A DNA stretch of 64,000 bases from Escherichia phage Turkey5. Positions within the stretch are counted from its first letter, which is position 1, and every line of letters begins with the position of its first letter. The DNA lies in the sequence record PQ471516.1; one strand, given 5' to 3'. Under the pieces are notes generated by a model. The model searched no databases and was not told where the DNA came from. It worked only from the letters and a program-made list of their open reading frames with translations. The translations under genes and the position numbers were made by a program. Positions 57,454-59,170 of this stretch are shown piece after piece.

Positions 57454-57738
57454 ATGAAATCAGAAGATATAGAATTTACATATAGAGTTCTTTATAAAAT
57501 GTATGCAAATCCAGTTGAAAATGATTTCACTTACTATGAAACACTTAGAACAATATGGATGGATTACTTACACAGTATTAAAGATTATTTCATAGGAAAA
57601 CATGTAACTATTAATAACATAAAATATAAATGTACTGATGTTACTAGTTATAGTGGGAAACTATCTATTGAATTTTATCATCAAAATTCTTTTTATAGAA
57701 GATATCTTTTGGAGGTTAATTTGAATGATATTCAGTGA
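57454..57738 (+). CDS. Family C small protein (94 aa)
   Basis: RBS AAGGAA; N-terminal 'IEFTYRVLYKMY' shared with 57725, 57978 and 58880. Confidence 0.6.
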   Translation: MKSEDIEFTYRVLYKMYANPVENDFTYYETLRTIWMDYLHSIKDYFIGKHVTINNIKYKCTDVTSYSGKLSIEFYHQNSFYRRYLLEVNLNDIQ

Positions 57739-57997
57739 TTTACAATTCACGTATAAATGTATATTCGATATTAAAGCGTCAGATAAATTACTTGAGAATG
57801 TGTGGAGAACATATCTAGAAGAAATACGTGAATATTTTTCGAAAGATGGTGGCTACACTTTTCTTTACAATAACGTAAAGATGGAGTACCAATACCTCCA
57901 TAGTTACAATGGGAGAATCGAGGTTAGATTCTTTTCTAATCAAATTGGTGGAAGGGACTTTCTTTTGGAAGAATTAGATGAATACGAAACAGTATAA
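57725..57997 (+). CDS. Family C small protein (90 aa)
   Basis: Motif LQFTYKCIFD; overlaps upstream gene. Confidence 0.6.
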   Translation: MIFSDLQFTYKCIFDIKASDKLLENVWRTYLEEIREYFSKDGGYTFLYNNVKMEYQYLHSYNGRIEVRFFSNQIGGRDFLLEELDEYETV

Positions 57998-58283
57998 AGA
58001 CTGGCAATTCACATACAGATATTTGTACCGCCAGCACATCGATAGTATAGTTGAGAATGACGCATTTCGAATATTATGGCGTAGAGAGTTAGAAAAGCTT
58101 CGTTCACATTTCGTGGATTCTATATTCACTAAAGATGGTCACATTTTCAAATGCGTTAGTGAGTACAACATTCACTCATATGATGGTAACGTTGCTATAA
58201 GTTTTCATAACATAACTGACGTTGATGATGGAAGAATATATACATACGAGATGACAAAATTACCGGAGAATCTTAGAACATGA
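57978..58283 (+). CDS. Family C small protein (101 aa)
   Basis: Motif WQFTYRYLYRQ. Confidence 0.6.
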   Translation: MNTKQYKDWQFTYRYLYRQHIDSIVENDAFRILWRRELEKLRSHFVDSIFTKDGHIFKCVSEYNIHSYDGNVAISFHNITDVDDGRIYTYEMTKLPENLRT

Positions 58284-58480
58284 TACGCTGTCCACATTGT
58301 AACAGTACTCAAATCGCTCGCTTCCGTCTTGATTCAGACTGGGCTAGTGGTGCTGGTGATTTCTTTCCCGTCAATGATGATGCGGAATATACGGAAGAAC
58401 AACATAAAGATTTCGATAAATCATGGCGACCTGATATTGAATGCTTTTACTGCCTAGTGTGTGGTCGTATCCATGACTAG
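58280..58480 (+). CDS. zinc-ribbon protein (66 aa)
   Basis: C-x2-C near N-terminus (CPHCNS) and C-x2-C near C-terminus (CLVCG); ATGA overlap. Confidence 0.6.
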   Translation: MIRCPHCNSTQIARFRLDSDWASGAGDFFPVNDDAEYTEEQHKDFDKSWRPDIECFYCLVCGRIHD

Positions 58481-58706
58481 AGGTGAATTAGCCAGACGTA
58501 CATTATCTATGCTTAAAGACTTCAACCACCAAAAAACAACTGAATATTACATTTCAACTTTACTTGATTATTACTACCAGAGAAAAGTAATCCTGGGTCG
58601 TCATGAATTCACAGTACTGCACATGTACAGCAATGGTTTAGTATCTGTTAAAAATGAAACTTATGGTGCACAAATTTTAGCATTAAACATTCTTGGAGAT
58701 ATATAA
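58473..58706 (+). CDS. hypothetical protein (77 aa)
   Basis: ATG 58473 overlapping upstream stop. Confidence 0.5.
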   Translation: MTRGELARRTLSMLKDFNHQKTTEYYISTLLDYYYQRKVILGRHEFTVLHMYSNGLVSVKNETYGAQILALNILGDI

Positions 58707-58883
58707 ATGAGTAATAAACTATTCTTTTTCCTATGGAGTCTTTTCTCTCTTACAGTACTGTCAATTGCAGGTGCTTATTTGTTTTTAAGCGTGGATACAT
58801 GGTATATCAATTTACTATGTCCATTTGTTGCAGTTGGATTGGGATTTACTTTACATAGTGTAATTAAAGACTTTAAAGAATGA
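58707..58883 (+). CDS. small membrane protein (58 aa, two predicted TM helices)
   Basis: TAAATG junction; MSNKLFFFLWSLFSLTVLSIAGAYLFLSVDTWYINLLCPFVAVGLGFTLHSV; ends in ATGA overlap with next gene. Confidence 0.4.
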   Translation: MSNKLFFFLWSLFSLTVLSIAGAYLFLSVDTWYINLLCPFVAVGLGFTLHSVIKDFKE

Positions 58884-59170
58884 ATACAGAATCCAGTACT
58901 AAACTGCTACTAAAAGACATAGAATTCACTACAAAGGTTTTATATGAGTACTGGTCAGACAAAATTTTAGTTCAGTGTAATTCTGCTATGACAGATTTAT
59001 ATTTCAATACAGTTGATATTTTTAGAAATGAATTAATGCACAAACCTGTATTGTACAGGAATGAAGAGTACCAAATAGCTGCTGTTTCAACCAGTGCAGG
59101 AATGCTATTCTTGGATATTGAAAATTATAATTCATTTAGACCTGATGTACATTGGAAAACTTTAAGATGA
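58880..59170 (+). CDS. Family C small protein (96 aa)
   Basis: Motif IEFTTKVLYEYW. Confidence 0.6.
   Translation: MNTESSTKLLLKDIEFTTKVLYEYWSDKILVQCNSAMTDLYFNTVDIFRNELMHKPVLYRNEEYQIAAVSTSAGMLFLDIENYNSFRPDVHWKTLR

Follow-up and report, generated by a model that had tools for sequence, protein, structure and literature searches.

A fast-evolving family of four small paralogous proteins around a zinc-ribbon gene in an Asteriusvirus jumbo phage

The window analyzed here is the whole stretch of 64,000 nucleotides (nt) from Escherichia phage Turkey5 (sequence record PQ471516.1), and our subject is a set of four small open reading frames (ORFs) at positions 57454-59170 of it, which an earlier note, made from the letters alone, had taken for a family of paralogues of similar length sharing an N-terminal motif. 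All four are present on the + strand with the N-terminal strings quoted there. Copy 1 (57454..57738, 94 amino acids (aa)) has an AAGGA ribosome-binding site upstream, copy 2 (57725..57997, 90 aa), with a GGAGG ribosome-binding site, overlaps it by 14 nt, and copy 3 (57978..58283, 101 aa) overlaps copy 2 by 20 nt, its own stop overlapping the next start (ATGA). Copy 4 (58880..59170, 96 aa) belongs to a divergent subfamily and is coupled to its neighbors by ATGA overlaps on both sides. The region 56000-61000 is 98.7% identical to that of Escherichia phage vB_EcoM_JNE01 (Asteriusvirus, 355.6 kb; JNE01 below) and ~80-82% identical, in short stretches only, to those of 34 other Asteriusvirus genomes (E. 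coli, Salmonella). Judged by its sequence, the window thus comes from an Asteriusvirus jumbo phage. All genes of this region lie on the + strand and each carries the annotation 'hypothetical protein' in JNE01, where all four family ORFs are annotated as coding sequences.

The four copies are homologous over their whole length, beyond the motif FTY(K/R)xLY, and that they form a true paralogue family is confirmed because alignment, hidden Markov model (HMM), profile-profile and shuffle tests are significant for all of them. In an all-versus-all blastp comparison of the 157 + strand ORFs of the window, copy 1 matched copy 2 at E 3e-8 (28% identity over 86 aa) and copy 3 at E 1.5e-7 (30% over 76 aa), copies 2 and 3 matched each other at E 3e-5 (32% over 77 aa), and copy 4 matched copy 1 at E 1e-3 (23% over 77 aa). 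An HMM built from copies 1-3 found copy 4 at E 1.1e-5, the runner-up ORF of the window standing at 0.032, and an HMM of 13 core members from the window and the phages 121Q and A4, with copy 4 excluded, found it at 25.5 bits (E 1.3e-7), where the best of 5000 composition-preserving shuffles of copy 4 reached 14.4 bits. Profile-profile alignment by hhalign joined the core and the copy-4 group with 86% probability (E 5e-6, 66 columns), and independent orthologues connect copy 4 with the core of the family. The earlier note had named similarity limited to the short motif as the result that would speak against it; after removal of the N-terminal motif each copy still outscores all of 2000-3000 shuffles. 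For the N-terminal motif of copy 4 alone, three of 3000 shuffles score as high. The four-copy family of similar length (90-101 aa) proposed in that note is therefore upheld by blastp, HMM, hhalign and shuffles alike. At the DNA level the only repeats among the copies are 16-nt matches over the K-D-I-E-F-T and Q-F-T-Y codons, which places the conservation of the motif in the protein; its interpretation as a DNA element was rejected.

A further ORF between the copies, at 58473..58706 (+ strand, 77 aa), aligns with the family by hhalign with 55% probability (E 1.2e-4, 71 collinear columns) and may be a fifth, very remote member. It is the positional counterpart of 121Q gp428, and blastp finds its counterparts in 121Q and A4 at E 3e-4 to 7e-4. 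A wider superfamily that would also take in the ORFs at 59167-59421, 59422-59700, 60510-60782 and 56245-56806 was rejected, hhalign probabilities being below 4%.

The zinc-ribbon protein and the two-helix membrane peptide that had been described as interleaved with the copies are both in place. The zinc-ribbon gene (58280..58480, + strand, 66 aa), a fixed gene amid the family copies, encodes a protein with the pattern CxxC...CxxCxxC and 5 Cys, which matches phrog_22354 at E 7e-44 and is 85% identical to the proteins of 121Q and A4 and 70% identical to ORF454 of Klebsiella phage RaK2. It was also considered as a Lar restriction-alleviation protein and rejected as such (PF14354 at E 0.3, 11.8 bits versus the cut-off of 28.6). 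The membrane peptide (58707..58883, + strand, 58 aa) has two hydrophobic helices and a grand average of hydropathy (GRAVY) of 1.07, and is 60-64% identical to 121Q gp430 and A4_419. The order of genes in the cassette is copies 1, 2 and 3, the zinc ribbon, the 77-aa ORF, the two-helix membrane peptide, copy 4, two ORFs of phrog_32563, a 245-aa anchor and a 90-aa ORF. Hairpins followed by a T-run, resembling intrinsic terminators, stand on the + strand at the start (57416..57433, 20 nt upstream of copy 1) and at the end (60784..60802) of the cassette, both at the same positions in 121Q. Genes in between are tightly packed, with start/stop overlaps of 4-20 nt (ATGA, 14 nt, 20 nt) and recognizable ribosome-binding sites, which implies translational coupling. 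The two adjoining ORFs at 59152-59421 (ATG-start form 59167-59421) and 59422-59700, ~85-92 aa long, are a paralogue pair of their own in the same cassette, matching phrog_32563 at E 5e-4 and 1.5e-9. No gene is more diverged from JNE01 than 59167-59421 (4.7% of nt differ, 8 aa changed).

For copy 1 an AlphaFold2 model from an alignment of 13 sequences reached a mean predicted local distance difference test score (pLDDT) of 88 and a predicted template modeling score (pTM) of 0.78, with helices at 3-18 and 25-46 and strands at 50-53, 56-66, 69-76 and 85-89. Each copy is predicted to have a hairpin of two N-terminal helices that packs against an antiparallel sheet of four strands, probably a common scaffold for the core copies. 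The FTY(K/R)xLY motif is located in helix 1 of the model. In the alignment of 29 members introduced below, the conserved columns are mainly hydrophobic with helix/strand periodicity, plus T9, S65 and G68; G68 is invariant and lies in the turn between strands 2 and 3, and the remaining positions vary freely between copies. When the model of copy 1 was compared by Foldseek with BFVD, Asteriusvirus proteins were matched at E 3.5e-8 to 5e-4 and the RaK2 protein H6X4R2 weakly (E 0.018, TM score 0.56-0.59). No solved structure in the PDB matches the whole fold, and a confidently modeled fold of this kind is the one somewhat unusual feature of the family. The model of copy 4, made from its own subfamily alignment of four sequences, has a pLDDT of only 59.5 and the same H-H-E-E-E order as copy 1; with this low-confidence model Foldseek gave no significant match, family members included.

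The range of the family in databases is narrow. Nearly the whole profile of phrog_21004 is matched by copy 1 (E 5e-11), copy 2 (E 5e-7) and copy 3 (E 2e-4), and phrog_32291 is also matched by copies 1 and 3, both PHROGs being of unknown function; copy 4 has no PHROG match. The family is thus already known as clusters in PHROGs with no function attached, which do not record that the core copies and the copy-4 subfamily belong together, and our literature searches found no paper describing it. Scans of the four copies and their neighbors against Pfam, NCBIfam and PADLOC gave nothing above threshold, and a sequence profile search of the PDB with the family gave only noise (E > 0.2). Using tblastn, copy 1 was found in 35 Asteriusvirus records only, at 2-5 places per record, and copy 4 in JNE01 only. 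HMMER, run exhaustively over 1.84 billion representative proteins, gave ~12 true representatives, 85-101 aa long, and no homologue of cellular origin, and word-indexed searches returned near-identical sequences together with P0014 and P0017, proteins from metagenomic contigs that are orthologue-like to copy 4. Iterative profile searching, run on the syntenic loci of four sources (the window, 121Q, A4 and the metagenomic contig L004) and on the database representatives P0006-P0012 and P0014, converges on 29 members. By these searches the family is specific to Asteriusvirus, possibly with remote members in RaK2.

Comparison of this locus between phages shows a shared framework in Asteriusvirus, RaK2, CBB and Munch, which consists of Dam, a cytidylyltransferase-like gene, small ORFs, a ~200-aa protein, a variable slot, the 243-aa anchor, small ORFs and RNA ligase 1, completed in RaK2, CBB and Munch by the polynucleotide kinase PseT. 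In the window the left anchor of the slot (56790..57407, + strand, 205 aa, phrog_15575) is 73-80% identical to its counterparts in 121Q and A4, 61% to that of RaK2 and 45% to that of Munch. The right anchor (59762..60499, + strand, 245 aa) is found in all Rak2-like jumbo phages examined, with tblastn matches of 56-87% identity in 70 records that take in phages of Erwinia, Yersinia, Xanthomonas and Cronobacter. Between these anchors the window and JNE01 carry three family copies before the zinc ribbon and one after it; 121Q and A4 carry five before and one after, plus one weak candidate; and the metagenomic contigs L004 and L007 carry one before and four after. RaK2 has its orthologous zinc ribbon flanked by four small ORFs of marginal similarity to the family, and CBB and Munch have unrelated genes throughout the slot. 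The flanking proteins of the window are 73-87% identical to those of 121Q and A4, whereas the family copies are 23-40% identical, never above 40% to any copy elsewhere. The nearest relatives of copy 1 outside the window are 121Q gp425 and A4_414, and copy 3 groups with A4_412. A neighbor-joining tree has long branches and a few orthologous groups across phages, copy 4 grouping there with the copies that follow the zinc ribbon in L004 and L007. The duplications are therefore old; differential loss and fast divergence came after them, and the family expanded and contracted as copies were duplicated in tandem or lost before and after the zinc-ribbon gene. A scan of IMG/VR for the zinc ribbon found one distant contig, L013 (IMGVR_UViG_3300020050_005398, 81 kb), in which a distant homologue (3501-3725, 42% identity) is flanked by small ORFs (89-108 aa) in which no similarity to the family could be detected.

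Against JNE01, copies 1-3 of the window show 19.5 nonsynonymous and 5.5 synonymous changes, the ratio of nonsynonymous to synonymous differences per site (pN/pS) being 0.79 versus 0.20 for ten flanking genes (Fisher p = 0.01), and copy 4 is identical in the two phages. In more diverged orthologous pairs, from L004 versus L007 and from 121Q versus A4, the ratio of the corresponding substitution rates (dN/dS) is 0.00 for the zinc ribbon and 0.00-0.09 for the anchor; other neighbors have 0.07-0.31 and the family members 0.23-0.55. By these ratios the family evolves 4-10 times faster than its neighbors and is still under purifying selection, which indicates that it is functional.

The region is flanked by a Dam methyltransferase (PF05869, E 3e-33) and by an RNA ligase 1 of the T4 type at 61771-62913 (PF09511 and PF20819, E 9e-17). 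The gene of this ligase diverges from JNE01 by 8.2% at the nt level, far above its neighbors, and mosaic exchange is suggested. Beside Dam, in all Rak2-like phages, stands a 179-aa cytidylyltransferase-like protein (55709-56248) with sub-threshold similarity to TIGR00482 (nicotinate/nicotinamide-nucleotide adenylyltransferase; E 0.003) and a possible role in NAD metabolism. Farther upstream, the 315-aa ORF at 53004-53951 is not homologous to what JNE01 has at the same position (~74% mismatches, ungapped), both flanks being more than 97% identical; gene replacement or an indel between near-identical phages is the evident reading of this alignment. Other paralogue families also lie in the window. 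A larger tandem array at 20749-26083 (plus 35864-36037) comprises 18 ORFs of ~72-88 aa (blastp E < 1e-4), and the stretch 30295-39705 holds a family of seven ORFs of ~145-195 aa (at 30639, 31468, 31956, 32945, 34834, 38584 and 39232), interleaved with a family of four of ~114-122 aa (at 30295, 31115, 37386 and 38237). A family of three is found at 26561, 27072 and 33782. No tRNAs were found in the window.

Sigma-70 promoters in the window are strongly biased to the + strand: 12 perfect ones (12/12 positions) are on the + strand and none on the - strand, and of the near-perfect ones (11/12) 19 are on the + strand and four on the - strand. The 12 perfect promoters (TTGACA-16/17-TATAAT) span 2748-56059, mostly in the intergenic gaps at 10-19 kb, and are strikingly dense, which suggests a strong early region. 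From the strand bias, which is strong indirect evidence, we infer that the block is transcribed early by the host RNA polymerase. Of the strong promoters upstream of the cassette, the nearest is a perfect one on the + strand (TTGACA-17-TATAAT, 56031..56059), and further strong ones lie at 55125-55169. Since no promoter is found between the terminator at 57416 and copy 1, the cassette is probably reached by read-through past this terminator. The family proteins are hydrophilic (isoelectric point 4.7-6.5, GRAVY -0.30 to -0.72), and no signal peptide or hydrophobic segment was found in them; they are soluble and mildly acidic, and are expected to be cytoplasmic. Mass spectrometry of phAPEC6 virions identified 62 proteins (PMC7247149), and gp383-389, among them the homologues gp384 and gp386-389, are not in that set; the family proteins probably have no place in the virion.

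We consider it highly probable that this is a real family, with the anatomy and evolution set out above. What its members do is a more tentative matter. We propose that the copies may be early cytoplasmic proteins that bind host or defense components and were diversified by duplication, a reading which we regard as possible and as short of probable. The copies would be expressed early as cytoplasmic protein-binding modules, each offering a different surface on the common scaffold, and each would block or redirect a variable host factor or defense component, so that duplication and divergence would track variation of the targets; the conserved zinc-ribbon protein would be a possible partner or regulator. 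It is known that Dam-type methylation shields phage DNA from restriction and that Rnl1 and Pnk of T4 mend tRNA cut by PrrC. Interference with host or defense would fit the adjoining Dam and Rnl1 genes, one acting in counter-restriction and the other in repair after the PrrC anticodon nuclease, and both points have been made for this phage group in the phAPEC6 paper (PMC7247149). The family also occupies a variable slot between conserved anchor genes, as is expected of anti-defense and host-takeover genes. A bolder version seems unlikely. In it the family would be a new fold class of early inhibitors, in which hypervariable surfaces are carried on a conserved scaffold of helix hairpin and sheet; its paralogues would neutralize different alleles or types of a defense or surface-independent host factor that is polymorphic in E. 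coli or Salmonella, with the zinc ribbon as obligate partner or regulator and with this duplicating counter-defense set shared by Asteriusvirus and, remotely, by RaK2-like phages.

Several observations weigh against a role in binding host or defense components. The family has no homology to any characterized anti-defense or host-takeover protein, and the PADLOC, Pfam, NCBIfam and PDB searches came back empty. Guilt by association is weak because 83% of the genes in such a genome have no known function (PMC7247149). The dN/dS values are below 1 with no direct sign of positive selection, and relaxed constraint alone would give the same values. Copy 1 is directly preceded by a terminator, with no promoter that fits into the gap before its start codon, and mass spectrometry of virions easily misses small proteins.

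Other explanations were weighed against the same results. The copies might be interchangeable partner or specificity subunits of the zinc-ribbon protein, in a complex for phage regulation or nucleic-acid processing rather than one aimed at host defense. Such a complex would be in accordance with the zinc-ribbon gene having family members at its sides in Asteriusvirus, in metagenomic relatives and, in remote form, in RaK2, with the translational coupling of the genes and with the very strong constraint on the zinc ribbon (dN/dS 0); however, the variable number (5 to 7) and positions of the copies are unlike a complex of fixed stoichiometry, proteins that are acidic to neutral are unlikely to bind nucleic acid themselves, and L013 has a zinc ribbon and no detectable family members. 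We find this explanation doubtful. A pN/pS of 0.79 between the two closest genomes and the many other tandem paralogue arrays of the window would also suit largely dispensable, nearly neutral duplicates, produced by a high duplication rate in the accessory regions of jumbo phages and held under weak selection with no distinct targets. This is rather improbable, since the ORFs are intact and share a predicted fold, modeled with confidence for copy 1, at 23-40% identity, dN/dS in orthologous pairs is clearly below 1, orthologous groups persist across lineages, and ribosome-binding sites and coupling are retained.

It is still less probable that the cassette serves to exclude superinfecting phages or to compete with other phages, acting at the envelope together with the two-helix membrane peptide. 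The conserved small membrane peptide embedded in the cassette and the early-looking context of transcription could be taken in its favor, but neither a signal peptide nor a hydrophobic segment is present in the family proteins, and L004 and L007 carry the family and no ORF that blastp matches to the membrane peptide of the window. Finally, the copies might be no family at all, only unrelated small AT-rich ORFs with a chance motif in common, a view for which one could cite the identity of only 23% between copies 4 and 1 and the N-terminal motif of copy 4, which taken alone is no better than the best shuffles. This view is refuted by similarity that is significant over the full length in blastp, HMM, hhalign and shuffle tests and by the orthologues that bridge copy 4 to the core.

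Jumbo phages of the Rak2/121Q group are under development for therapy, and over 80% of their genes are without a known function. The present analysis sets a real, structured and selectively maintained gene family apart from ORF noise and draws its boundaries at four copies here, a possible fifth and possible remote members in RaK2. It also offers concrete and cheap candidates for screens of anti-defense or host-takeover activity, namely four genes of ~280 bp and the zinc-ribbon protein as their possible partner. If the family were indeed a new class of diversifying inhibitors, its interest would rise.

The closest known counterparts are the clusters phrog_21004 and phrog_32291, in which the same Asteriusvirus proteins are catalogued, with copy 4 left outside and with no function or structure attached. 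The hypothetical proteins gp422-426 and gp429 of 121Q, A4_411-415 and A4_418 of A4, and gp386-389 and gp384 of phAPEC6 belong to the same family and share the slot, the zinc-ribbon gene and the ~205-aa and 243-aa anchors. They differ by their identity of 23-40% to the copies of the window, by having five copies in tandem ahead of the zinc ribbon where the window has three, and by a copy after the zinc ribbon that precedes the membrane peptide, whereas in the window it follows this peptide. In RaK2, ORF452, ORF453, ORF455 and ORF456 are likewise small ORFs around the orthologous zinc ribbon in the same slot; their similarity to the family is marginal (HMM ~15.6 bits, hhalign 77% at E 2e-5), and they carry a degenerate form of the FTYK motif.

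In a more general way the cassette resembles the plastic regions of T4-type phages and the acr-aca anti-defense islands, where fast-evolving small ORFs of early type also lie between conserved anchors, here beside Dam and Rnl1. It differs from acr-aca islands in that the conserved neighbor is a zinc ribbon and not a helix-turn-helix Aca protein, and no sequence or fold similarity of the family to known Acr or anti-restriction proteins was found. Multiplication of a small domain in a single lineage of jumbo phages has a parallel in Bacillus phage G, with its roughly 35-copy zinc-ribbon expansion (Iyer et al. 2021, PMC7824862). That expansion differs in fold, family and phage group, and in the cassette described here it is the module of helix hairpin and sheet that has expanded, not the zinc ribbon. 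Paralogous gene products have been reported to make up ~10% of those of RaK2. Arrays of paralogues are thus already known to fill the genomes of jumbo phages, and on present evidence this family is an ordinary example of them.

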